A stretch of 64,000 nucleotides of DNA from a phage: assembly GCA_024449565.1 (NCBI GenBank), contig GCA_024449565.1_4810.1; one strand, written 5' to 3'. Numbering within the stretch: position 1 is the stretch's first letter; each line of letters begins with the position of its first letter. The position numbers and the translations under genes were made by a program. The notes below the pieces were generated by a model. The model was not told the DNA's origin. It was given only the letters and a program-made list of their open reading frames with translations, and ran no database searches. Shown here piece by piece: positions 2,974 through 42,859 of this stretch.

Positions 2974-3315
2974 ATGAACAACACTTTGTCACAACTGTTA
3001 ATCTGGACTATCGCTGCTATCATCGGCACCGTTATTATGATGTCAAGTGCAAAGGCTGAAACGGATATTTGCGGCAGACTTATTTCTGAAAACGGCGAAA
3101 TTTATTATGGCAACTCAAAAGGTGATTATATATCGCCTGAAGTTTGCGCTCAGAAGAAAGCAGAAATGCAAAAGCAGTATCATGAAGATCAATCTATATC
3201 TCAAGCCGCGCTGATTGAATTAAGTATATCAGCCATCATCTTTCTAATCGTTTTTATGCTCATTATTAAACCAAATAATGGCAGCCACCGTCATATTCCT
3301 CTCAAAAGAAATTAA
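2974..3315 (+). CDS. secreted or membrane-anchored protein (113 aa)
   Basis: Start at internal ATG 2974 with AAGAGG RBS; N-terminal signal-peptide-like segment and C-terminal hydrophobic helix. The longer track ORF 2767 has a junk-like N-terminus. Confidence 0.55.
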   Translation: MNNTLSQLLIWTIAAIIGTVIMMSSAKAETDICGRLISENGEIYYGNSKGDYISPEVCAQKKAEMQKQYHEDQSISQAALIELSISAIIFLIVFMLIIKPNNGSHRHIPLKRN

Positions 3316-3353: not shown

Positions 3354-5264
3354 ATGCCAAGGCTAATATTCAAAAACAACTTTGAGGTCGCGCTCGCTCA
3401 GCCAGCGACGACTTCAGACACCACAATCACAATCCGCTCAGGGTCGGGCTTTCCGACCTTGGGCGCAAACGAGCGTGTAGTGGCGACAGTCGTCGACGCT
3501 GCAACAGGCCTCCAATTCGAAATCATCACTGTAACAGCCGTGGTTGGAAACGTGCTAACCGTGCAGCGTGCACAGGAAGGGACTGCAGCGCGTGCATGGA
3601 GCGTCGGAGATTTTTTATCCATAAGGGTGACGGCTGCCATATTGACAAGCACAGTAAGGAATTTTGGAGAATTACCTTCTGGAATAAACTTAAATGCCCT
3701 TACTGGTTCTTGGTTCGGTCAATACCAGCAGTCTTCTAATTCTGCGGCTTCGCAAGTTCTGAATTATCCTGTAGCCCAATCAGGCAGCCTTGAGGTTATT
3801 TGCTCGGCAAACAACTCTGGTGACCAATCTTGCACGCAAATATACAGCACGAATCCTGACAACAAGCAGTACAAAAGAACTTATAATTCAGAAACAAGCA
3901 CATGGTCTACTTGGGCTAAAATATATAACTCTTCCGACGTGATTCCAGTCTCCAATGGAGGGACTGGTGTTTCAGACATAGGATCAATAAGAAGAGCAAT
4001 ATTGGTGCAAGGACTTGAATGTAATGATCAAACTGGTCCCCAATCATACAACAGCTATCGTTCACCAAATTCAGCATACACATGGAAAATAGATAACTCA
4101 GGACTTGTGCAAGTCATAAAGACTTCTGATGGTTCTGCAGTGCCAATACCTATTGAATCAGGAGGGACTGGTGGAATAACTGCTTATAGTGCAAGGGTTA
4201 ATCTCTCTTTGGATAGGCTGCGCCAAGAAGGTGCTTATACAGAACTGAATTCTGCGAACGGAAGATATAGATTTCTTGTAAATGATTCAGGAGATTGGGG
4301 AGGTTTTGATGGTTCCACAAACGGCTGGAAGCCATTGGCAATAGCGCAGGGAGGGACTGGATCAACCACGTTGGAAGGAGCAAGAACGAATCTGAAAATT
4401 GACAGGTTCTTGCAAGGTGATATTGATACAAAAATATCAACGCCTGATTCGCAATACAACTTTTTCATCACTGACGCTGATTGGGGTCTTTATGATGTAA
4501 CATCACTAAATAGAGTTGCACTCCCAATTGTCAGCGGCGGCACAGGCGGAGTAACTGCTGTTGAATCTTGCAAGTCTCTCGCAGCGATGCATTATAAATA
4601 CCCAGCGCAAACATCATTTGGGCAGCAATACATGGAGACTGGGGTTGGATATTACAGCACTGATCAGTCACCAAGTCCAGGTGGAAGCGGTTCTCCATAT
4701 AACTATGCCGAGATACTTACTATATCTGAATTTGGTAATGGAGCTAACTATTCTCAAATCGCATTTTCAGTGTTGACGGAACAACCGCCGCGATACAGAC
4801 AAAGGTTTGACTCTAATCCAAGGTTGACTAATTGGCGAGATTTCCTTATTCGCGATTTGAATACCAGCGTAGACAGCAACGGATTCATAAAAATTGCTTC
4901 ACCAATAGTCAAAATAAGATTTGATGGATCATTTGAGCTGAACAGCGAGTCAGAAGGCTGCACAGTGTCAAGAGAAGGAAAGGGGCACTATTTGATAAGC
5001 GGTTGCCTCGGATTAAATAGTGATGCCGCCTGGGGAGGCGTTAACGGCGGCTTTGAAATTCCAGTTGATGTGAATAAACAGCCTAGAATTTGGCTTGACT
5101 ATAAAGTGAATGAAGATGGATCAGTTGACGTATTCACATATCACAGGGTGCACAATGATGCCCCAGTTTTTGCAAGGAATAACCTTGAAGGTTATGCAGA
5201 CGGAGACCCAATAGACATACCAAAGGATGCATTTATCTCTGTGAGGGTGCAAATGCCAAAATAA
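3354..5264 (+). CDS. tail fibre-like protein with repeated GGTG motifs
   Basis: 636 aa; GAGGA RBS; four copies of [IV]xxGGTG[GAS]x(6-8)AR.NL motif typical of phage tail fibre shafts; Ser/Asn/Gly/Thr-rich. Confidence 0.7.
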   Translation: MPRLIFKNNFEVALAQPATTSDTTITIRSGSGFPTLGANERVVATVVDAATGLQFEIITVTAVVGNVLTVQRAQEGTAARAWSVGDFLSIRVTAAILTSTVRNFGELPSGINLNALTGSWFGQYQQSSNSAASQVLNYPVAQSGSLEVICSANNSGDQSCTQIYSTNPDNKQYKRTYNSETSTWSTWAKIYNSSDVIPVSNGGTGVSDIGSIRRAILVQGLECNDQTGPQSYNSYRSPNSAYTWKIDNSGLVQVIKTSDGSAVPIPIESGGTGGITAYSARVNLSLDRLRQEGAYTELNSANGRYRFLVNDSGDWGGFDGSTNGWKPLAIAQGGTGSTTLEGARTNLKIDRFLQGDIDTKISTPDSQYNFFITDADWGLYDVTSLNRVALPIVSGGTGGVTAVESCKSLAAMHYKYPAQTSFGQQYMETGVGYYSTDQSPSPGGSGSPYNYAEILTISEFGNGANYSQIAFSVLTEQPPRYRQRFDSNPRLTNWRDFLIRDLNTSVDSNGFIKIASPIVKIRFDGSFELNSESEGCTVSREGKGHYLISGCLGLNSDAAWGGVNGGFEIPVDVNKQPRIWLDYKVNEDGSVDVFTYHRVHNDAPVFARNNLEGYADGDPIDIPKDAFISVRVQMPK

Positions 5265-22970: not shown

Positions 22971-23028
22971 GAATCACCTCTGCTTCAGTTCATAAAATGA
23001 TTATAGTTGCTATGAAAATAAAAGCAAA

Positions 23029-24111: not shown

Positions 24112-24271
24112 CTTTCTTTCCTTCGGTGATCAATACCTGCAGTATAATATTGAGTGATACAAAGTCAACAATATTTACCATTTAGTTCACAATTTCGATT
24201 TACTTTGCTTTATACTATATCTGCAATTATACTATCAGAAAATATTTCCGCACTAACAAAGGTCGCCTGAA
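24112..24271. promoter_or_regulatory. divergent promoter region between primase-like gene and plus-strand replication block
   Basis: AT-rich 160 bp with several TATAAT/TATACT-like boxes on both strands. Confidence 0.4.
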
Positions 24272-25940: not shown

Positions 25941-26780
25941 ATGGCCGAAGCAATCAAAGTATTATCTAAAGAAGAAAAACAAGCCGCTGCAGCAGAACGT
26001 CGTCGCGTAGCTGAAGAAAAACGTTTGGCTAAAAAGAAAGAAGCCGAAGAAAAGCGCCAGAAGCGCGAACAGGAAAAACAAGCCAAGCGTGAAGAAGCCG
26101 CGCTGAAACGCAAGCAGGCTGCTGACGAGAAGGCTCAGAAGCGTGCTGAAGAAGCAGCTAAGAAAGCTAAAGAGCGTGCAGAAAAGGCCGCTGCTAAGAA
26201 AGCAGAGCGTGAAGCCGCTAAAGCAGCAAAAGAAATCGAAAAGGCAAAGGCTAAAGAAGAAGCCAAGCGCCTGAAAGCCGAGCAGGCTGCGGCCAAGAAA
26301 GCAGAGCGTGATCAAGCCCGTGCTGCAGCGAAGGCCGAAAAAGAGAAGGCCAAAGAAGAAGCTAAAGCGAAACGCAAGGCAGAGCGTGAAGCTGCTAAGA
26401 TTGCGGCGAAAGAAGCTGCAGAACAGCAGAAAGAACAGCGTAAGAAAGAAGCTGAAGAACGTCGCAAAGCCATCGCAGAACGTAAGGCTGCTAAAAAGGC
26501 AAACGGTCAGCGTCGTGCAAAAGCCACTCACTTCATCTACACTGGCAATGGCCTGAGCCAGCCGCAAGAGCATTCCACCCGTGGACGCGTTCTGGCGGCG
26601 ATCAAAGAAGGCGAAGTTGGCGTGGCACAGTCTATCGATGAGCTGGGCGAAAAAGTTAAAGATCAACTGTTTGGCGCTTCCGTTCGCTCCTACCTGAGCA
26701 AGCTGGAAGAGATGGGACACATCGAGTTTGTCGATGTTGAATCCAACGACGATGCTGAAGACGGTGATCAAGCGGAATAA
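25941..26780 (+). CDS. Lys/Ala/Glu-rich low-complexity coiled-coil protein with globular acidic C-terminal domain
   Basis: 279 aa; ~190 residues of KAE-rich repeats (EEKRxAKK, AEREAAK) then ~80-aa non-repetitive acidic domain. Confidence 0.65.
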   Translation: MAEAIKVLSKEEKQAAAAERRRVAEEKRLAKKKEAEEKRQKREQEKQAKREEAALKRKQAADEKAQKRAEEAAKKAKERAEKAAAKKAEREAAKAAKEIEKAKAKEEAKRLKAEQAAAKKAERDQARAAAKAEKEKAKEEAKAKRKAEREAAKIAAKEAAEQQKEQRKKEAEERRKAIAERKAAKKANGQRRAKATHFIYTGNGLSQPQEHSTRGRVLAAIKEGEVGVAQSIDELGEKVKDQLFGASVRSYLSKLEEMGHIEFVDVESNDDAEDGDQAE

Positions 26781-26808
26781 CCTGTAGGACGGTTATATAG
26801 CGGTAATT

Positions 26809-26836
26809 GACCCACACTTGATGTGGGTCTTTTTTC
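26809..26836 (+). terminator. intrinsic terminator after the KAE-rich gene
   Basis: gacccaca/tgtgggtc 8-bp stem, loop cttga, then ttttttcg. Confidence 0.6.
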
Positions 26837-26914
26837 GTCTGTACTAAATAGAAATGACTTGTTGCTGTAAATTAATTTAGCTATTATACTTCTCATATCA
26901 CCCACAAAGGAAAA

Positions 26915-27910
26915 ATGAACATGAAACAACCTGTAATGATTATCGGCGGCGGCTTGGCAGGACTTATTACCGCGTGTCACTTCCCGAACTCCATTGTGTA
27001 CGAAGCAGGGGAACGAGCGCCACAGCACAAGGCGCTGCTACGCTTTCGCGGCGAAGAAGTAAGCCGTATTACCGGAATCCCTTTTAAGGCCGTGACAGTT
27101 GACAAGGCTGTGTATTTTCGCGGTAACTACTATAACGACCATTGCCCAATCAACCTTGCCAATATGTATTCGATGAAGGTCACCAATCAGTTTGGTAGCC
27201 GTTCAATCATGAAGCTTAAAACTGCAACGCGTTATATTGCGCCGGACGACTTCTATGATCAGCTTGTCGATAAACTGGGTGATCGCATATTCTTCAATAC
27301 TCCGGTTGACACGCTTTGCGGCTATAGCGAGACGCCAATCATCAATACATCGCCGCTGCCAGTCATGATGAAGCTGGCAGGAATTGATCAAAATATTGAC
27401 TTTTCATTCGATAAAGCAAACATTCGCGTTTACCGCTTTAAGATTAAACGTAAGTGTGAACTGTATCAAACCATTTACTTTCCTGATTGCTCCGTCAGAA
27501 CTTACCGTGCATCAATCACTGGCGACACATTGATCATTGAAACAATTCCTTTGGTTAGCGTAAGTGAAGCCGCAGTTGAAGCCGCTGGCGGCATTACTCG
27601 TTACCGTGACATTAAGTTGCGTGCAGAAGTTGACGAAGTGTTGACGGCCTTTGGTCTTTCATGGAGTGACATTTCTCTCGAAGAAGTTGAAAAGGTCGAC
27701 CAGAAGTATGGCAAGATTGTCGACATTCCGAAAGACTTGCGACACGCTCTACTCCTACAGCTGACCATGGATTTGAACGTATTCAGTGTCGGTCGATTCG
27801 CTACTTGGCGAAACATTTTGCTTGATGACGTTGCTCATGACCTTGTTGAAGTTGAAAAACTCATCAAAGCAAATAACTATCAAAAATTTGCTTATATTGC
27901 TAATAAATAA
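26915..27910 (+). CDS. FAD/NAD(P)-binding oxidoreductase-like protein
   Basis: 331 aa; N-terminal dinucleotide-binding fingerprint VMIIGGGLAGLITA. Confidence 0.55.
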   Translation: MNMKQPVMIIGGGLAGLITACHFPNSIVYEAGERAPQHKALLRFRGEEVSRITGIPFKAVTVDKAVYFRGNYYNDHCPINLANMYSMKVTNQFGSRSIMKLKTATRYIAPDDFYDQLVDKLGDRIFFNTPVDTLCGYSETPIINTSPLPVMMKLAGIDQNIDFSFDKANIRVYRFKIKRKCELYQTIYFPDCSVRTYRASITGDTLIIETIPLVSVSEAAVEAAGGITRYRDIKLRAEVDEVLTAFGLSWSDISLEEVEKVDQKYGKIVDIPKDLRHALLLQLTMDLNVFSVGRFATWRNILLDDVAHDLVEVEKLIKANNYQKFAYIANK

Positions 27911-27918
27911 TTTGCTTT

Positions 27919-27955
27919 CTGCTTCAATGGGCGTATACTTTAATCATTGAAGCAG
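27919..27955 (+). other. 11-bp perfect inverted repeat (possible RNA processing or attenuator hairpin)
   Basis: ctgcttcaatg ... cattgaagcag with 15-nt loop; no T-run. Confidence 0.4.
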
Positions 27956-27976
27956 AACTCATAAGAGGAAACGAAA

Positions 27977-28423
27977 ATGAAACGCATCACTGGAATCGCG
28001 CTTGCCGCAACTGCTATTCTCGGAACCATGTATATGGAAGCGACTGAAGCTGCCATCCGTACTTCCGATTCAATCGCTGTTTACGATTGCGAAGCGATGG
28101 ACGGCAAGACCGCAGCGACGACTGGCGCAACAATTACCACTTACATCGGTGTGAACGAGCAGGAAGGTCTGAATATTCAGATTCAGGGATTCACCGGAAA
28201 AGGCGCCAACCGGACTCCGTGGATGCAGCGTTTCACTTTCGTTCAGCCTCGTTCGACTGGCGACTTTATTAACCTGATTGGTGAAAACCGTTCTGGTGCA
28301 GAAATCTTTACCTCAATGAGTTCTAATAATGAACCAAAGAAAAGTTTTCAGTTGCTTTATAACGCACAATTCGTTTATCATTGCACCTTCTCTGGTGATC
28401 AGCAACTAGTGAATTACCGTTAA
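27977..28423 (+). CDS. secreted protein with signal peptide (148 aa)
   Basis: AAGAGG RBS; N-terminal signal-peptide-like segment MKRITGIALAATAILGTMYMEATEAA; two Cys in the mature part. Confidence 0.6.
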   Translation: MKRITGIALAATAILGTMYMEATEAAIRTSDSIAVYDCEAMDGKTAATTGATITTYIGVNEQEGLNIQIQGFTGKGANRTPWMQRFTFVQPRSTGDFINLIGENRSGAEIFTSMSSNNEPKKSFQLLYNAQFVYHCTFSGDQQLVNYR

Positions 28424-28436
28424 TAGGATAATTAAA

Positions 28437-29246
28437 ATGAAAGTTGAATTAATTCGATACACCCAAGATGCACTTGACCTTTTGCTGGAAACAAAGAACA
28501 CGCGCATGACTGGTAAGCCAGTCTCTGAGATGACAGAATCAGAGAAGCAAGAGCACTGGCGCTACATGCTTGATACAATCAAGTCTCCTTTTGACTTTGT
28601 GGACTATATCTTTGATATCACAGCTGTATCAAAGAACATGACCCATCAGATGGTACGCACACGCACAGGCGCATATCAAGAACGCACCAGCCGCGCTCAG
28701 GAGTCGTCTGCATTTGATGCGATTCGTCCGAAGGCATTCGAGCACCCTTCTGACTGCAATGATGAAAATGCATTTGATGATGTGCACATAAGAAATCACT
28801 CATTGGCAGAGAAGTGGGATGATGCGATGGCCACGATTGACGCTCTATACCAAGAGCTTCGCGCGGCTGGCGCAGAGATTCAAGATGCACGTGCCGTGTT
28901 GCCTTCTAATATGCAAACGCATATCATGGCAAAGTTCAACTTGCGCACTCTACAACAAATGGCCTCTAACCGCTTGTGCACGCGTACTCAAGGCGAGTAT
29001 CAAGAAGTATTCCGTGCAATGGTTGCGGAAGTCCTTAAGGTGCACCCGTGGGCCAATCCTTTACTACAGCCGCAGTGCATCGGTATGGGTAAGTGTGCAT
29101 TTCCTCGTCACGGTAAGGCCCATTGCCCATGGTATCGTGATTGGATGGATACGACTGCACAGCAAGAAGAATTGCGCATTCAGTTTTGGGATGCCGCGCC
29201 AATCACCAACAATCCAGTTGCTAAAGATGGAGTATCAAAAGGATGA
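28437..29246 (+). CDS. thyX: flavin-dependent thymidylate synthase (ThyX)-like protein, divergent active-site motifs
   Basis: 269 aa; SPFDFVDYIFDITAVSKNMTHQMVRTRTGAYQERTSR matches the ThyX core, with RHR as RTR and SPFEH as SPFDF. Confidence 0.6.
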   Translation: MKVELIRYTQDALDLLLETKNTRMTGKPVSEMTESEKQEHWRYMLDTIKSPFDFVDYIFDITAVSKNMTHQMVRTRTGAYQERTSRAQESSAFDAIRPKAFEHPSDCNDENAFDDVHIRNHSLAEKWDDAMATIDALYQELRAAGAEIQDARAVLPSNMQTHIMAKFNLRTLQQMASNRLCTRTQGEYQEVFRAMVAEVLKVHPWANPLLQPQCIGMGKCAFPRHGKAHCPWYRDWMDTTAQQEELRIQFWDAAPITNNPVAKDGVSKG

Positions 29247-30115
29247 GCATTAAAAACAGCGAAATCTTAAATGTATTCGACCTTGACGGAACGCTGTTTG
29301 ATGACCGTTGGCGCTTAGACCGCATTAAGGTGGCAGGTCCGTTGTCAGACTATGATGATTATCACAGCGGTATTGGTTATGATCAGTTCTATCCTCACAT
29401 TGCATCAGCAGTAGAGTCGGCATCTCTTCGCGGTGAGGCGGTTGAATATTGGACTGCAAGGCCAGAAAAATACAGACAAGTGACTTTTGAACGTCTGGAC
29501 AATGTTTTTCCTTTTGATGAATTTACAATCAAGATGAGAGACTATGGCGACAAACGTCCATCAACTATTATGAAATCTGCATGGCTATCGCACGCATTGC
29601 GGCACGGCGATTATCGAATCATCAACGTATTCGACGACCGACAAGACGTACTCGCGCGGATGCAAGATGAAGCATTGTATTATAATTCCGTTGCTCAAAA
29701 TAAAATCGCTTTTACATTTAATCTTTGCAAGGCAGGTGAAGTGGTGCAACAATTAGCAATTGATCCAAGCGCAACAGGGCAAGAAGAGACTAAGGCTGTG
29801 GAAGTTGAACAATCTCCGGCAACTGCCGCCGATATTCTTGATGCAATGGCAGCAACCTTCCGTGAGCGCAACGCTGTCTATGGCGATAACGCTGTGATGG
29901 TAGGTCAGGTTATGCAAGTGCTTTTCCCTAATGGCGTGACGTTGAAAACGCCGGAAGACTACCACATGTGGCATCTGTTCGAGCTTAAGATTGTCAAGCT
30001 TACACGCTTCGCAATCAGCGGCCTGAAGCACGAAGACTCTATACACGATGATGGTGTTTACAGCGCCATGTGTGAACGTCTTGTTAACACCCATAATATT
30101 AATTTCAATAAATAG
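29243..30115 (+). CDS. HAD-superfamily phosphatase-like protein with unknown C-terminal domain
   Basis: 290 aa; HAD motif I FDLDGTLFDD at the N-terminus; start overlaps ThyX-like stop. Confidence 0.55.
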   Translation: MSIKNSEILNVFDLDGTLFDDRWRLDRIKVAGPLSDYDDYHSGIGYDQFYPHIASAVESASLRGEAVEYWTARPEKYRQVTFERLDNVFPFDEFTIKMRDYGDKRPSTIMKSAWLSHALRHGDYRIINVFDDRQDVLARMQDEALYYNSVAQNKIAFTFNLCKAGEVVQQLAIDPSATGQEETKAVEVEQSPATAADILDAMAATFRERNAVYGDNAVMVGQVMQVLFPNGVTLKTPEDYHMWHLFELKIVKLTRFAISGLKHEDSIHDDGVYSAMCERLVNTHNINFNK

Positions 30116-30144
30116 TTTACTTGTGCGTTTCGATGAGTTATATT
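30116..30144 (+). promoter_or_regulatory. sigma70-like promoter (TTTACT - 17 bp - TATATT) within conserved element
   Basis: Shares ~26 nt (GAGTyATAwTTAyyTCATCGAAACGAA) with the element upstream of 37108; overlaps an 11-bp perfect inverted repeat. Confidence 0.45.
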
Positions 30145-30180
30145 TATCTCATCGAAACGAAGTCCAAAAAGGATAAATAA

Positions 30181-30864
30181 ATGAAAAAAGTAATTGTTGT
30201 AACTGGCTGCAATTCCGGTCTTGGTAAGTCCATTTTTGACACCCTTGGCGCTTACGGTCATGAAGTTGTCGGTATTGATTTGGAGAACGGCTATGACATC
30301 CGTAACGCGAAACAGATGAAAGAGCTTCTCTCTCAATACGACGTAGAAGGCTTGATCAACTGCGCTGGCGTCAACTCCAACAACTGGTTCGAAGATGTTA
30401 ACTACGAAGAGTTCAATCGCGTTATGCACACCAACGCCTTCTCTTTCGTCAACACGACTCAGGCCGCGCTGAAAAGTCTTATTGACAACAAAGGTTTTGT
30501 GATCAACATCGTTTCCAACGCTGCGCATATTCCTATGACGTCCAGCTTGTGTTATAATGCTTCCAAGGCTGCTGCGCTCATGATTAGCAAGCAGATGGCT
30601 CACGAGCTTACGCCTAAATACGGGATCACGGTATTCTCTATTAGTCCTAACAAGCTACGTGGTACTGGCATGTCCAAACAGATTGAAGATGCTGTTTGCG
30701 CGACTCGCGGCTGGACTCCTGAATACGCTGCTGAATACCAGAAAAAGGCACTGATGAATGGATTGGAGACTGAGCCGCAAGTAATTGCTGACTTCATTCG
30801 CCATATCTTAATTACGGGCGCATGGCGCTTTATGTCTGGTACTGATATTCCATTTGGGAAATAA
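30181..30864 (+). CDS. short-chain dehydrogenase/reductase (SDR)
   Basis: 227 aa; cofactor motif VTGCNSGLGKS; catalytic YNASK (YxxxK). Confidence 0.75.
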   Translation: MKKVIVVTGCNSGLGKSIFDTLGAYGHEVVGIDLENGYDIRNAKQMKELLSQYDVEGLINCAGVNSNNWFEDVNYEEFNRVMHTNAFSFVNTTQAALKSLIDNKGFVINIVSNAAHIPMTSSLCYNASKAAALMISKQMAHELTPKYGITVFSISPNKLRGTGMSKQIEDAVCATRGWTPEYAAEYQKKALMNGLETEPQVIADFIRHILITGAWRFMSGTDIPFGK

Positions 30865-30867
30865 ATC

Positions 30868-31038
30868 ATGACTATCAAAGTTGTTGTAGAAGTGATTGGC
30901 GACGTAGCAGAAGTGAAGATTGATCAAGAAGGTGTTGGATTTGAAGTAATAAGAATCGAAAACGCAAAGATTAACCACGAGCGCGTCGGTTCCATTGAGA
31001 CTTATTCCATCGAAGGCAACACAGTAATTAATCAATAA
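30868..31038 (+). CDS. possible small protein (56 aa)
   Basis: ATG 30868 to TAA 31036-31038 encodes MTIKVVVEVIGDVAEVKIDQEGVGFEVIRIENAKINHERVGSIETYSIEGNTVINQ. Below track size cutoff. Confidence 0.4.
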   Translation: MTIKVVVEVIGDVAEVKIDQEGVGFEVIRIENAKINHERVGSIETYSIEGNTVINQ

Positions 31039-31058
31039 TATTTAATTAAGGAAACAAA

Positions 31059-31610
31059 ATGCCACATTTTAAAATTGAACAAATCGCCCTGTCAATCCCA
31101 GATGCTCAACGCGCTCAGGACTTCCTGGCTAAAATAGGCCTGACAGAATGGTTCCATGATCACGTTGTTGCTACTGGTCGCGTATTTGAAGCTGATTACT
31201 TTAAAGGTCAGCGCGGCGATTGCACCAATGAAGCTAACTTGCGCTTCAACTATCAGGCTGGCAACGGTACTGATGGCGGCGCTGGTAAGCCTCTTGAGCT
31301 TGAAATCCTTGACTATACAAAAGGTTGCAACTGGATTCGCGAAAACATCGAATACATCGATGCGCACGACAATCAGGTTAGCCATCTTGGTATGCACGTG
31401 ACTGCCGCTGAACTTGCTGAATGGCGCAAGTTCTTTAAAGAAGAAGGCATTCAGGTTGCGCAGGAAGTTGTGACCGACTCTCACACCAACCCAAACATTG
31501 CTGGTCAGCGTCGTTACAACTATGTAATCTTTGATACGCGTGAAATCATCGGCGTTGATTTGAAGTTTATCGTGCGGTTGAATCAAGACGGTACTCCGTA
31601 CACTGCATAA
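31059..31610 (+). CDS. VOC (glyoxalase/dioxygenase-like) family protein, tentative
   Basis: 183 aa; AAGGAAA RBS; N-terminal HFKIEQIALSIPDAQRAQDFLAKIGL resembles the VOC beta-alpha-beta-beta-beta signature. Confidence 0.45.
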   Translation: MPHFKIEQIALSIPDAQRAQDFLAKIGLTEWFHDHVVATGRVFEADYFKGQRGDCTNEANLRFNYQAGNGTDGGAGKPLELEILDYTKGCNWIRENIEYIDAHDNQVSHLGMHVTAAELAEWRKFFKEEGIQVAQEVVTDSHTNPNIAGQRRYNYVIFDTREIIGVDLKFIVRLNQDGTPYTA

Positions 31611-31626
31611 CGAATCTTGAATCTGT

Positions 31627-31651
31627 GGCCGTCCTAATGGGCGGCCTTTTT
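31627..31651 (+). terminator. intrinsic terminator after the enzyme cluster
   Basis: ggccgtcc/gggcggcc stem, loop taat, then ttttt. Confidence 0.55.
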
Positions 31652-31664
31652 GTAGGAGGCCAAT

Positions 31665-32207
31665 GTGTTATTTCTCCCTTATGACTTCGAAACAACAGGA
31701 TTAACCGTGCACCCGAAAGCGCCGCTTGGAATGCAGCCGCGCCCTATTGAATTTGCAGGGTTGTTGACGGACGGCAAAGAGATTCTTGAAACGTTCGAGT
31801 TCATAATTAATCCTGAAATTGTGATTGAAGAAATCATCACAAAGATTACCGGATTGACAAATGAAGACCTTGAGTGCAATCCACCATTCATCAATTTTGT
31901 CCCGCAGCTAAAAGAAATCTTCAAGAAGACGGATGCCACTATCGCGCACAACCATGCGTTCGATAAAAACATTCTTGATTATGCACTACAGCGCGAAGGA
32001 CTTACGCTTGATGATGTTAATTTTCCAGAAATAAACATTTGTACAGTTGAGCAAACCTTGCCTATTTTTGGCCGAAGAGTTAAGCTTCAAGAGCTGTATG
32101 AATTATATTTCGGAAAATATGAACAGAAACACCGTGCATTAGACGACGTAATATTACTGCACAAAGTCTGCCAACAAATTGGCGTATATGACATCTGGAG
32201 TAAATAA
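31665..32207 (+). CDS. DnaQ-like 3-5 exonuclease (DEDDh family)
   Basis: 180 aa; GTG start with AGGAGG RBS; Exo I FLPYDFETTGL, Exo II HNHAFDKNIL, Exo III HRALDDV. Confidence 0.8.
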   Translation: MLFLPYDFETTGLTVHPKAPLGMQPRPIEFAGLLTDGKEILETFEFIINPEIVIEEIITKITGLTNEDLECNPPFINFVPQLKEIFKKTDATIAHNHAFDKNILDYALQREGLTLDDVNFPEINICTVEQTLPIFGRRVKLQELYELYFGKYEQKHRALDDVILLHKVCQQIGVYDIWSK

Positions 32208-39140: not shown

Positions 39141-39659
39141 ATGATAGAAAGAATTGTACCGCTCCTGAAGATTCTGGCCCTTGTCGGCGCGTTTGCCGCT
39201 GGATCATACGTTGAAGACCTTAAGCAAACCAACGCATCACTGGCCAAGGATAATCAATATCTGACATCGCTTAATGAGCGTAAGGACAAGATAAATGCAC
39301 TCGAAGAGCAAATTGCAACTTTACAGGTTGAATCGGCATCGGCATATGAGAAGGGTCGCCAGGAAGCGCAACTGGTTGCTGATGACACTATTGCTCGTTA
39401 CAAGTCTGGGAATATCAAGCTGCGCGAGCAACTCAGCTGCTCCCGTGAGTTACTCAGGAGTGTGCCCGACTCTGCGACCACTGGACGCCTCTCTATCCCA
39501 GAAGGAAACTGTGGACTATCAGAAGAAGATGTCAGATTTCTTGTTCAGTTCGCCGCAGAAACAAATCGATTAAAAGAGAAAGTTAATAGCTTGATTGATA
39601 CTTATAATCAGGCTAAAATAAAAATCGATCAATTCAATGCATCAAAGGAAAATAAATGA
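39141..39659 (+). CDS. i-spanin-like protein (Rz-like): N-terminal TM anchor plus coiled coil
   Basis: 172 aa; TM helix IVPLLKILALVGAFAAGSYV then coiled-coil region; contains embedded lipoprotein ORF in another frame. Confidence 0.5.
   Translation: MIERIVPLLKILALVGAFAAGSYVEDLKQTNASLAKDNQYLTSLNERKDKINALEEQIATLQVESASAYEKGRQEAQLVADDTIARYKSGNIKLREQLSCSRELLRSVPDSATTGRLSIPEGNCGLSEEDVRFLVQFAAETNRLKEKVNSLIDTYNQAKIKIDQFNASKENK
39346..39573 (+). CDS. o-spanin-like outer-membrane lipoprotein (Rz1-like), embedded in alternate frame
   Basis: Track ORF 39295-39573; lipoprotein signal with lipobox-like LVTSLGISSC; entirely inside the i-spanin-like gene. Start codon uncertain. Confidence 0.45.
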   Translation: MRRVARKRNWLLMTLLLVTSLGISSCASNSAAPVSYSGVCPTLRPLDASLSQKETVDYQKKMSDFLFSSPQKQID

Positions 39660-41244: not shown

Positions 41245-41318
41245 CACACTGGATAAATAATTGTTGCGTATAATCTATCGCGCCGTTTTCTAGAATTTAA
41301 TATACAGTGTATACATAA

Positions 41319-41344
41319 AGCCGGAAATTTCCGGCTTTTCTTTT
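41319..41344 (+). terminator. intrinsic terminator after ligase gene
   Basis: Palindrome agccggaaatttccggct then tttctttt. Confidence 0.55.
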
Positions 41345-41419
41345 ATTTACTTTCGGCGTATTTACTTTCAAAACCTTGAGCCTATACTATTAATATTCAT
41401 AATCAAAAGGTGAATTATA

Positions 41420-41962
41420 ATGAAAGCGAACAAATTAAAGATTGTTTTGATCATCATCATGGCTATGCTGACAGTTATATTCTTCACCAAGACTGCATCG
41501 GCTGAAAATATGTTTACGCCGCCGAATGGAAGTGCAAAAGTTTTGACAAGATATTTCAACAATGGGCAGTCATTTGAGTTTTGCTGGAATAAATACGACG
41601 TAATAAAAGAAAGATTTGACAAAGAAAAGATGTGCGTAATGAATGATCGCGGTCGGCAGGTCGTGTCGTTTGTGTTCGGAATGTCAATGGCAAAAGTTGA
41701 TGCCCCTGAAATCGTTGTCAGGTATAATACATTGGACAGCGGCCTTGTCGACAAGACATACCCTGTTGCAGTAGACAGCAGGACAGGCGGCGCACTAATA
41801 CTCACTCCAGAAGATAAATCAGATGTCGTTAACATGCTCATCAACAGCAAAGACGTAATCGTGTTTTATCACATTGAAGGCGTATCAGACTACCAAATGG
41901 CCTACTATCCACTGCCCTTGAGAGATGCTTCAGGTAATGTTAAGACACAGGAAGTGCGTTGA
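41420..41962 (+). CDS. secreted protein with signal peptide (180 aa)
   Basis: N-terminal KLKIVLIIIMAMLTVIFFTKTASA signal-like segment; AAAGGTG RBS. Confidence 0.55.
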   Translation: MKANKLKIVLIIIMAMLTVIFFTKTASAENMFTPPNGSAKVLTRYFNNGQSFEFCWNKYDVIKERFDKEKMCVMNDRGRQVVSFVFGMSMAKVDAPEIVVRYNTLDSGLVDKTYPVAVDSRTGGALILTPEDKSDVVNMLINSKDVIVFYHIEGVSDYQMAYYPLPLRDASGNVKTQEVR

Positions 41963-42189
41963 CATGGGTGGTAGTTATGCAGAAAGATTTGGAAGAAAAC
42001 AAAAGGCTGAAAAAGGCTTTGACGTCTCAAATCTTATCCCTGTTGGTAAAGCTTATTGGGGAGTCAATTAGCAACAAGGTGGCACGGGCCGCGATTGTGG
42101 GTGCAATTGGTATGGCGGGGTATTATTTCGACTTACCAGACATTGATACAAGTTCCGCTCCGCCCGTCCAAGTTGAAGCCGTAAAATAA
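41959..42189 (+). CDS. small membrane protein (76 aa), possible holin-like
   Basis: One hydrophobic helix AAIVGAIGMAGYYF; convergent with the endolysin gene. Function is inference. Confidence 0.4.
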   Translation: MTWVVVMQKDLEENKRLKKALTSQILSLLVKLIGESISNKVARAAIVGAIGMAGYYFDLPDIDTSSAPPVQVEAVK

Positions 42190-42214: not shown

Positions 42215-42859
42215 TTACATAACTGCTAGTGCATCTTTGTAACGCTTTCTTCGCAACTCACCGTGGTTTGCTGCGTTCGGCGCGGCCCCGTTAATCCGCT
42301 TAACGGTTGAATCAAAATTTCCTGCATCCGCAAGAGGAATACAGCCGCTATTCTTAAAGAACCATGCCGCGCTGTCAGCAATGTATTTTGGTTCAGTCAG
42401 AATATCAGGATTGTTCAATGCATCATAGCCTGATTGACGCGTATATTCCGCATAGTTGGCCTTTCCAGTCAGCTGAATGGCACCACGGCCACGGTACTTC
42501 CAACCGTCGCCAGATGCTACTGAACCGTTGCCCATGCGGTTTGCATATGTATTATTGGCGATTTCCACAGGTTTACGGGCAATCGACAGTGCCAATGAGT
42601 TCGGGGCACTTCCAGAGCGACCGTTGACGCTGTAACGACTAGGCCATGTATTGGCAAGACCTTGAGCGGAATAATTCAGATTTTCCACAAAGGTCTTCAG
42701 ACTGCCTGTTTCCACTCCTACGTTTGCAAGCAGCGCCGCGACGGCATTCTTGCTTTTGATTCCGTAGTGCTCACAAGCCTGCTTGAAGGGGTCGACCCAT
42801 TTTTCAGCAACATCCATGCTGCATCCGGTCCCTTTAGATATTACGTTTGCATTAATCAT
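42215..42859 (-). CDS. endolysin, glycoside hydrolase family 19 (chitinase-like) type
   Basis: 214 aa; GVETGS and RGAIQLTGKANY motifs characteristic of GH19 phage lysins. Confidence 0.7.
   Translation of the reverse strand: MINANVISKGTGCSMDVAEKWVDPFKQACEHYGIKSKNAVAALLANVGVETGSLKTFVENLNYSAQGLANTWPSRYSVNGRSGSAPNSLALSIARKPVEIANNTYANRMGNGSVASGDGWKYRGRGAIQLTGKANYAEYTRQSGYDALNNPDILTEPKYIADSAAWFFKNSGCIPLADAGNFDSTVKRINGAAPNAANHGELRRKRYKDALAVM

Follow-up and report, generated by a model that had tools for sequence, protein, structure and literature searches.

The window analysed here, 64,000 nucleotides (nt) of phage DNA (GenBank assembly GCA_024449565.1, contig GCA_024449565.1_4810.1), contains an open reading frame (ORF) for a protein of 148 amino acids (aa), which we term ORF A (27977-28423) and which is the founding member of a tiny family, hitherto without annotation and restricted to Wifcevirus, Kylevirus and a few further relatives. 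The product of ORF A and those of two further plus-strand genes with signal-peptide-like N-termini, ORF B (41420-41962, 180 aa) and ORF C (2974-3315, 113 aa), are, as judged from their sequences, very likely exported to the cell envelope, ORF A by the Sec pathway and into the periplasm. The assignment of mature ORF A to the class of small secreted beta-barrel binders, made from a predicted structure, is reasonably supported. The window belongs to Wifcevirus, a genus of Escherichia coli phages: its nucleotide identity to Bas99, WFH and FEC19 is ~95%, and the region 26000-32000 is 94-96% identical to ~29 Escherichia/Shigella Wifcevirus myoviruses (ManiWeber_Bas99, WFH, WFC, FEC19 and ECML-117 among them).

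ORF A, ORF B and ORF C are genuine conserved genes under selection. An earlier note on this DNA had singled them out, with coordinates that proved exact. All three are present in 29/29 Wifcevirus records, with amino-acid identities of 95-99% (ORF A), 92-100% (ORF B) and 96-100% (ORF C), and each start codon is preceded at a distance of 7-13 nt by a Shine-Dalgarno sequence (AAGAGGA, AAAGGTGA and AAAGAGG, respectively). No earlier start than the ATG is possible after the upstream in-frame stop in ORF A and ORF B; the reading frame of ORF C opens at 2767, and the ATG at 2974, which has the Shine-Dalgarno sequence, is the annotated start of its Bas99 counterpart. The counterparts in Bas99 (Bas99_0051 for ORF A, Bas99_0034 for ORF B and Bas99_0110 for ORF C) are all labelled "hypothetical protein". 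For ORF A, comparison of 7 Wifcevirus genomes gave a synonymous divergence (dS) of 0.21, a non-synonymous divergence (dN) of 0.015 and a dN/dS ratio of 0.07, similar to that of the adjacent SDR gene. The following features describe the gene and its product:

27977..28423, plus strand: ORF A, predicted precursor of a secreted small beta-barrel protein (ortholog of Bas99_0051); basis: ORF, Shine-Dalgarno sequence, presence in 29/29 records, dN/dS, homologs in the same slot
27977..28051, plus strand: predicted Sec signal peptide, aa 1-25, ATEA|A (the bar marks the cleavage site); basis: n-, h- and c-regions, conserved A|A column
28052..28420, plus strand: mature domain of ORF A, 123 aa, 13.7 kDa, pI 5.8, predicted 8-stranded beta-barrel; basis: AlphaFold model

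The ORF A family and its predicted export

A word-indexed protein search with ORF A returned only its own Wifcevirus cluster, and an exhaustive HMMER scan of 1.8 billion representatives added a single match, P0002 (129 aa, 31-35% identity, E=4e-4). The third member was found by reading the syntenic slot of Pantoea phage PA1, after which a profile search added P0004, P0005 and P0006, and tblastn added gp76 of phage Kyle. The family comprises 8 members, of which the seven beyond ORF A, at 17-35% identity, are found in Kylevirus and in metagenomic phages; two Cys residues (C38 and C136 in ORF A) are invariant in all 8. Among the 362 phage records that contain the FAD-like gene located upstream of ORF A, those with an ORF A relative number 29 from Wifcevirus and 3 from Pantoea phages. 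ORF A-like DNA was not found in 5,426 E. coli genomes, a scan of GTDB genomes detected no ORF A relative, and IMG/VR and JGI metagenome scans yielded no contigs with ORF A relatives beyond those already known. There is no Pfam match for ORFs A-C at E<=0.01, nor for any of the 8 ORF A members at E<=1; ORFs A-C and their relatives match nothing in PHROGs, NCBIfam or PADLOC, and among PDB sequences, where ORF C was not searched, neither the ORF A family profile nor ORF B alone finds a match. Kinship between ORF A and ORF B was rejected (hhalign probability 2%), and a second signal-peptide protein found in the corresponding slot of Kyle could not be demonstrated to be an ORF A paralog (probability 6.5%), though its two Cys residues align.

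The predicted N-terminal signals are MKRITGIALAATAILGTMYMEATEA|A in ORF A, MKANKLKIVLIIIMAMLTVIFFTKTASA|E in ORF B and MNNTLSQLLIWTIAAIIGTVIMMSSAKA|E in ORF C. By simple descriptors, namely the charge of the n-region, the length of the uncharged run (16-26 residues) and the peak hydrophobicity (2.3-3.5), all three fall within the range of the OmpA, PhoA, MalE and DsbA signals, except that the n-region of ORF C is not basic; by the same descriptors the N-termini of ThyX, the HAD protein, the SDR and the ligase encoded in the window lie outside the range of these controls. Among the 25 signal-peptide codons of ORF A the 7 Wifcevirus genomes exhibit 0 non-synonymous versus 46 synonymous pairwise differences, and the tripartite signal is kept in 7/7 demonstrable homologs at 17-35% identity, despite an altered signal sequence. 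The alignments reveal that N-termini of the family start with MK(R/T/N), continue with an uncharged hydrophobic run and end in an AxA-type site (VGA|A, VGA|G, ANA|A, SFA|A and ADA|Q in the relatives), which lies 3-6 residues past the h-region in every member; the A|A column was invariant in the first alignment. The signal-like N-terminus of ORF C draws its support from within the genus only. No lipobox ([LVI][ASTVI][GAS]C) is present in the signals of ORFs A, B and C, which contain no Cys at all, and the Cys residues in the signals of PA1, P0004 and P0005 occur outside a lipobox context and are not conserved. On inspection, lipoprotein (signal peptidase II) targeting was rejected for the lack of a lipobox, and Tat targeting for the lack of a twin-arginine motif. 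Past the predicted signal, ORF B and ORF C possess exactly two Cys residues each, as does ORF A. Because the property of the N-terminus but not its sequence has been kept, and because the Cys pair is conserved, we infer that ORF A is a cleaved, periplasmic, disulfide-bonded protein, with moderate confidence in A25|A26 as the cleavage site. The export proposed in the earlier note appears very probable, given the conserved Sec-type signal of ORF A, its invariant Cys pair and a predicted barrel that starts just past the putative cleavage site.

The predicted barrel and the slot upstream of thyX

AlphaFold prediction for ORF A from the single sequence reached a predicted local distance difference test score (pLDDT) of 32, and the model used here was built from a six-sequence alignment (pLDDT 66, predicted template modelling score 0.61; residues 1-24 with pLDDT <50). 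It contains eight beta-strands over residues 28-147, several of them only 6-9 residues long; C38 belongs to strand 1 and C136 to strand 8, and a C38-C136 disulfide that closes the barrel is suggested by this model with moderate confidence. The mature length ranges from 103 to 123 aa across the family. The BFVD model of the Mansfield ortholog, made independently, agrees with ours (template modelling (TM) score 0.75). PliC, lipocalins and Cap15 are among the generic small barrels to which the fold is similar, and its root-mean-square deviation (rmsd) is 2.6-2.7 Å to soluble barrels and 3.3-3.9 Å to outer-membrane proteins (OMPs). Thus, of the structure prediction and fold search that the earlier note had called for, the former yielded an 8-stranded barrel from residue 28 onwards, while the latter gave weak, generic matches and no family could be assigned.

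Membership of ORF A in PliC/MliC, lipocalins or Ail/Lom is not supported. No ORF A member matches Pfam MliC (PF09864) even at E<=1, and many unrelated barrels score equally well as PliC/MliC or better; the segment "SGAEI", considered as a PliC/MliC inhibitory-loop motif, was rejected, as it is present in ORF A alone and not conserved in the family. Lipocalins (e.g. E. coli Blc) share the 8-stranded meander barrel and provide the top PDB matches in Foldseek, and in BFVD they are the next-best recognisable class after the Mansfield self-match, at a non-significant level. However, the lipocalin matches have TM scores of 0.3-0.4 and E>=0.009, mature ORF A has 123 aa compared to about 150-170 aa in lipocalins, and it lacks a C-terminal helix, the GxW motif and any match to Pfam lipocalins.

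The immediate surroundings of ORF A contain the following features:

26809..26829, plus strand: intrinsic terminator, left bound of the unit that runs from the FAD-like gene to the VOC gene; terminator scan, annotated also in WFH
26915..27910, plus strand: FAD/NAD-type GxGxxG protein, phrog_4828 (a PHROG of unknown function); motif and PHROG match
27912..27939, plus strand: sigma70-like promoter candidate TTGCTT-N16-TATACT; pattern search, hexamers invariant in relatives
27917..27957, plus strand: 14-bp stem-loop overlapping the -10 element, specific to Wifcevirus; RNA fold dG -20.4 kcal/mol, z -4.2
28437..29246, plus strand: ThyX; Pfam Thy1 E=9e-30, start 13 nt past the ORF A stop
31627..31646, plus strand: intrinsic terminator, right bound of the same unit; terminator scan, annotated also in WFH

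The ORF positions and the Pfam Thy1 match confirm the earlier placement of ORF A between a FAD-binding gene and thyX. In every genome that carries a member of the ORF A family, this member is located after the FAD-like gene (~320 aa) and before thyX. The FAD-like gene itself is present in 362 phage records (Pbunavirus, Myosmarvirus, Xanthomonas, Luteibacter and Rhizobium phages, and others), 330 of which have no ORF A relative. The slot of Serratia phage WR01 contains an unrelated protein of 86 aa that lacks a signal, that of Pbunavirus LS1 five small soluble ORFs, and that of Kyle two signal-peptide proteins, the second of which is the one not demonstrably homologous to ORF A; the content differs also in the relative L017. 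The slot is a variable accessory-gene hot spot. Since its content varies and the enzyme genes are widespread without the ORF A family, the enzymes evidently work without ORF A, and this removes the suggestion of the earlier note that ORF A could be a binding subunit. As to Kyle (L020), the first gene in its slot is annotated from a GTG codon, and an internal start (MKRF...) yields a clean signal peptide.

The upstream spacer of ORF A is 66 nt long and holds the candidate promoter; the alignments of this DNA covered the relatives L009, L010, L011, L013, L017, L019 and L020 (Kyle). Both hexamers and the downstream TAATYAYTGAAGCAGA are invariant in Logan relatives in which ORF A is only ~31-35% identical, i.e. 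the intergenic DNA is more conserved than the protein, and a sigma70-like promoter candidate is found in the same place in PA1, Kyle, L017, L019 and WR01. In Kyle (L020, 1875-2396), the 22-nt promoter core GCTCAAGGATGAGCGATAATCA is repeated ahead of each of the two adjacent signal-peptide genes, an arrangement that looks like tandem moron-like cassettes. The left arm of the Wifcevirus stem-loop is not conserved in L009 and L013, and the Kyle/PA1 lineage possesses a different small palindrome (GCTCA-AGGA-TGAGC) in the promoter spacer; the hairpin or palindrome upstream of ORF A may serve as an operator or act in the RNA as a 5' element. With up to 2 mismatches, the pattern TTGCTT-N16-TATACT occurs at 16 sites in the whole window, compared to 5.9 +/- 2.3 expected. 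Copies of the pattern are located e.g. at 23000-23027, 24141-24168 and 30117-30144, and several of them lie in intergenic spacers just before genes (primase, SDR), which suggests a family of host-type early promoters. The terminator scan found no terminator in the 13-nt gap between ORF A and thyX. Because a conserved promoter-like site precedes ORF A and only 13 nt separate it from thyX, we regard ORF A as the putative promoter-proximal gene of a thyX transcription unit rather than a gene wedged in an enzyme operon, promoter activity being deduced from the conservation of the site. The view that an exported protein is unexpected at this place did not hold either: the promoter candidate separates ORF A from the FAD-like gene, the slot is variable, spanin genes reside in the same cluster, and there is a precedent in the Spackle protein of phage T4.

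The unit at 26830-31646 encodes, besides ORF A, the FAD-like protein, ThyX, a HAD/PNKP-like phosphatase that has an additional domain at its C-terminus, an SDR, an ORF of 56 aa and a VOC/glyoxalase-like protein. Elsewhere the phrog_4828 FAD-like protein is labelled polyamine oxidase, UDP-galactopyranose mutase or oxidoreductase, and it has no match among PDB sequences. The BASEL study reported that most restriction systems fail to act on Wifcevirus, for which no mechanism of protection is known, and because of this resistance the unit is a candidate nucleotide or DNA-modification pathway. Ahead of the unit (25941-26780) lies a gene for a 279-aa Lys/Ala/Glu-rich low-complexity protein, phrog_4765, annotated as "TolA protein" in some relatives; its minus-strand shadow ORF (269 aa) is almost certainly spurious.

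Possible roles of ORF A

The account that we favour, and hold to be fairly probable as a whole, is that of a secreted barrel encoded by an accessory gene and acting in the envelope. The ORF A precursor would carry a Sec-type (signal peptidase I) signal peptide, be exported to the periplasm and be cut after Ala25, whereupon the 123-residue mature protein would fold as a small 8-stranded up-and-down beta-barrel, probably stapled shut by a DsbA-made disulfide between the Cys residues of the first and last strands. The gene would be a promoter-proximal or near-proximal accessory gene in the variable FAD-like/thyX slot, transcribed from a host-type promoter together with genes of nucleotide metabolism, yet outside their chemistry. 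The protein could bind or inhibit a target in the envelope and thereby protect or condition the infected cell, in analogy to T4 Spackle or PliC/MliC. We suggest this protective role, be it superinfection exclusion or the block of a muralytic or other periplasmic activity, only tentatively and with low confidence; superinfection exclusion, proposed already in the earlier note, is a reasonable guess.

T4 Spackle (gp61.3) is an early, periplasmic exclusion protein with a cleaved 22-residue signal and one disulfide, which binds the gp5 tail lysozyme in the periplasm; its gene is named for its place beside the replication gene 61 (PMC7650644, PMC7677548). ORF A resembles it as a small phage protein with a (predicted) Sec signal and a single (predicted) disulfide, encoded among replication genes. 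On the other hand, the 75 residues of Spackle form an alpha-helical bundle, while the fold predicted for ORF A is all-beta, and there is no sequence relationship between them (no PHROG or Pfam match). Together with the phage's own spanins, Spackle is a precedent for envelope genes among enzyme genes. Another parallel is provided by morons and exclusion lipoproteins (T5 Llp, Cor), accessory genes with envelope-targeted products that have been inserted among the backbone genes and in many cases carry a promoter (PMC9586334 for Llp). From its sequence, the slot of ORF A exhibits the corresponding characters, i.e. a promoter-like site upstream, a position between backbone genes and variable content (WR01, LS1, Kyle, L017). 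ORF A differs from these genes in that it lacks a lipobox and a separate terminator, and in that it is present in every member of the genus rather than sporadically.

Several observations weigh against the favoured account. Searches of Pfam, PHROG, NCBIfam, PADLOC and PDB sequences revealed no homology to known superinfection exclusion proteins, lysozyme inhibitors or defence and anti-defence families. The crude signal rule flags 33/407 mechanically called ORFs and is hence weak on single sequences, one false positive being the Rossmann N-terminus of the FAD-like gene, so that the signals are made convincing by the comparison of homologs; the c-region of ORF A contains two Glu residues (MEATEA), which makes it less canonical than in the relatives. 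The structural model is only of moderate confidence (pLDDT 66, 6 sequences) and its fold matches are generic: Foldseek against the PDB returned nothing below E=0.009, the weak lipocalin matches having TM scores of 0.3-0.4. Finally, the strictly fixed position beside the FAD-like gene over deep divergence could also signal functional coupling.

Such coupling to the neighbouring enzymes, with ORF A as a periplasmic lipocalin-like ligand binder for the FAD-like/ThyX/HAD/SDR/VOC module or as a subunit, would account for the finding that family members follow the FAD-like gene (nearly) directly and precede thyX in all eight genome types despite 17-35% identity. It would also agree with the presumed co-transcription of ORF A with thyX over a 13-nt gap, and a lipocalin-type barrel is a classic small-molecule binder. 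Nevertheless, we consider it unlikely, as ~330 phage records (Pbunavirus, Myosmarvirus and others) contain the FAD-like gene and thyX without a family member, the candidate promoter lies between ORF A and the FAD-like gene, an exported protein could not be a physical subunit of cytoplasmic enzymes, and synteny is generally conserved in this phage group, so that the fixed position weighs little. A special form of this idea, in which the ORF A family would be a lipocalin-like periplasmic receptor that catches an extracellular or periplasmic precursor for the nucleotide or DNA-modification pathway of the enzyme module and thereby underlies restriction resistance, appears highly improbable; if true, the phage would possess a metabolic pathway equipped with a periplasmic component for uptake.

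The other alternatives concern where the protein resides and which process it serves. It is doubtful that the N-terminus stays uncleaved, so that ORF A would be a type II signal-anchored inner-membrane protein with a periplasmic barrel, or a cytoplasmic protein with a hydrophobic helix. The uncharged run (17 residues long in ORF A, with a maximum of 27 in PA1) does reach anchor length in some members and the c-region of ORF A is acidic, but every member has its AxA-type site 3-6 residues past the h-region, with the A|A column invariant in the first alignment, and the moderate hydrophobicity of the h-region, with Gly and Thr, is typical of cleaved signals; a cytoplasmic location would leave the conserved tripartite N-terminus and the invariant Cys pair unexplained. 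That BAM inserts ORF A into the outer membrane as a small beta-barrel like Lom, Ail or OmpX is very improbable: the mature length is only 103-123 aa and several strands have only 6-9 residues, the rmsd to OMPs (3.3-3.9 Å) is worse than that to soluble barrels (2.6-2.7 Å), the C-terminus of ORF A (...VNYR) has no terminal aromatic residue, no member matches Ail_Lom or OMP_b-brl in Pfam even at E<=1, and OMPs do not usually have a conserved Cys pair. A lysis-timing factor, i.e. a periplasmic antiholin or spanin regulator in the style of T4 RI, would share the small size of ORF A as well as its predicted periplasmic location and disulfide, and lysis by Wifcevirus is reported to be unusually fast, with no holin annotated. 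We regard this role, too, as quite unlikely for ORF A, which is located 11-14 kb from the lysis genes, behind a host-type promoter candidate and among early replication and nucleotide genes; ORF B, for which the same role can be considered, is far better placed.

ORF B, ORF C and the lysis genes

ORF B and its surroundings comprise the following features:

41317-41338: terminator before ORF B; terminator scan
41361..41388, plus strand: promoter-like site TTTACT-16-TATACT, following the terminator
41420..41962, plus strand: ORF B, predicted secreted protein, signal aa 1-28 (TASA|E), mature part 152 aa, conserved C55 and C72; sequence and relatives
41959..42189, plus strand: homolog of PA1-LRP, small holin-like membrane protein, phrog_5165; BLASTP E=2e-13, 54% identity
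42192..42211: hairpin terminator between the LRP homolog and the endolysin gene (gap of 25 nt), minus-strand call; terminator scan
42215-42859, minus strand: endolysin gene, convergent; annotation

ORF B and the LRP homolog appear to form a two-gene unit (terminator, promoter-like site, two genes, terminator), which is convergent on the endolysin gene. Relatives of ORF B are found at 61-63% identity in metagenomic phages (three checked) and at 34-37% in the Pantoea phages PA1 (34%) and Kyle. In the full-length relatives checked, the signals have sites of the ARA|A or TFA|A type, and C55 and C72 are conserved; as with ORF A, the signal is kept in divergent homologs, whereas that of ORF C is supported within the genus only. 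The relative P0011, on a contig of 906 nt, has a short atypical N-terminus (MG-) with no basic n-region, and the tblastn match in Kyle begins at residue 31 of ORF B; the N-termini of Kyle and P0011 were left out of the signal assessment. Pantoea phage PA1 has the same gene order (ligase - ORF B - LRP), likewise convergent on its endolysin gene, and the primer for PA1-LRP maps there to L021:2550. PA1-LRP is a small, hydrophobic protein, which is reported to be toxic and to aid lysis by the endolysin, the evidence for its holin-like character coming from over-expression only (PMC11538084); the ORF B homolog of PA1 is ORF14, which was outside the tests of that study (PMC11538084). Because the partner gene of ORF B encodes a holin-like LRP homolog and the endolysin gene faces the pair, our best guess is that ORF B may have a periplasmic role in lysis or lysis timing.

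No holin is annotated in Wifcevirus. An embedded pair of i- and o-spanin genes (39141-39659 and 39295-39573; o-spanin lipobox ...GISSC) is located between a gene for a 286-aa protein and the genes for a MazG-like pyrophosphatase and the ligase, in the same plus-strand cluster and far from the endolysin gene, so that the lysis genes are scattered through the replication cluster.

The third gene is described by a single feature:

2974..3315, plus strand: ORF C, membrane protein with an N-terminal signal or transmembrane segment at aa 1-28 (SAKA|E); sequence, 29/29 records

This N-terminal segment is followed by a predicted periplasmic segment of ~50 aa with C33 and C58, a C-terminal transmembrane segment (aa 78-98, nt 3205-3267) and a basic tail. 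From this sequence, ORF C is predicted to be an inner-membrane protein, either of type I after cleavage or a two-pass hairpin. It lies immediately upstream of the gene for the T-shaped tail fibre (3354-5264), the receptor-binding domains of which are reported to vary widely (PMC11990801). A receptor-matched exclusion factor was considered for ORF C and judged unlikely, as the protein is 96-100% conserved across the genus in contrast to the variable fibre (PMC11990801).

ORF A thus represents a new, tiny and hitherto unannotated family of a familiar kind, the phage-encoded secreted accessory proteins. Few phage-encoded periplasmic proteins are known, and they are often exclusion factors, lysozyme inhibitors or regulators of lysis. 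Such proteins are relevant in practice for phage cocktails and host-range engineering. The genus, represented in the BASEL collection by Bas98-101, gains three defined, testable envelope-directed candidates (Bas99_0051, Bas99_0034 and Bas99_0110), the first of which comes with a family alignment, a predicted cleavage site, a Cys pair and a predicted fold. The significance of the ORF A family would rise only if it were functionally tied to the adjacent, itself uncharacterised, enzyme module. As it stands, the case of ORF A illustrates that gene adjacency in the early regions of phages reflects timing and insertion slots rather than shared biochemistry.

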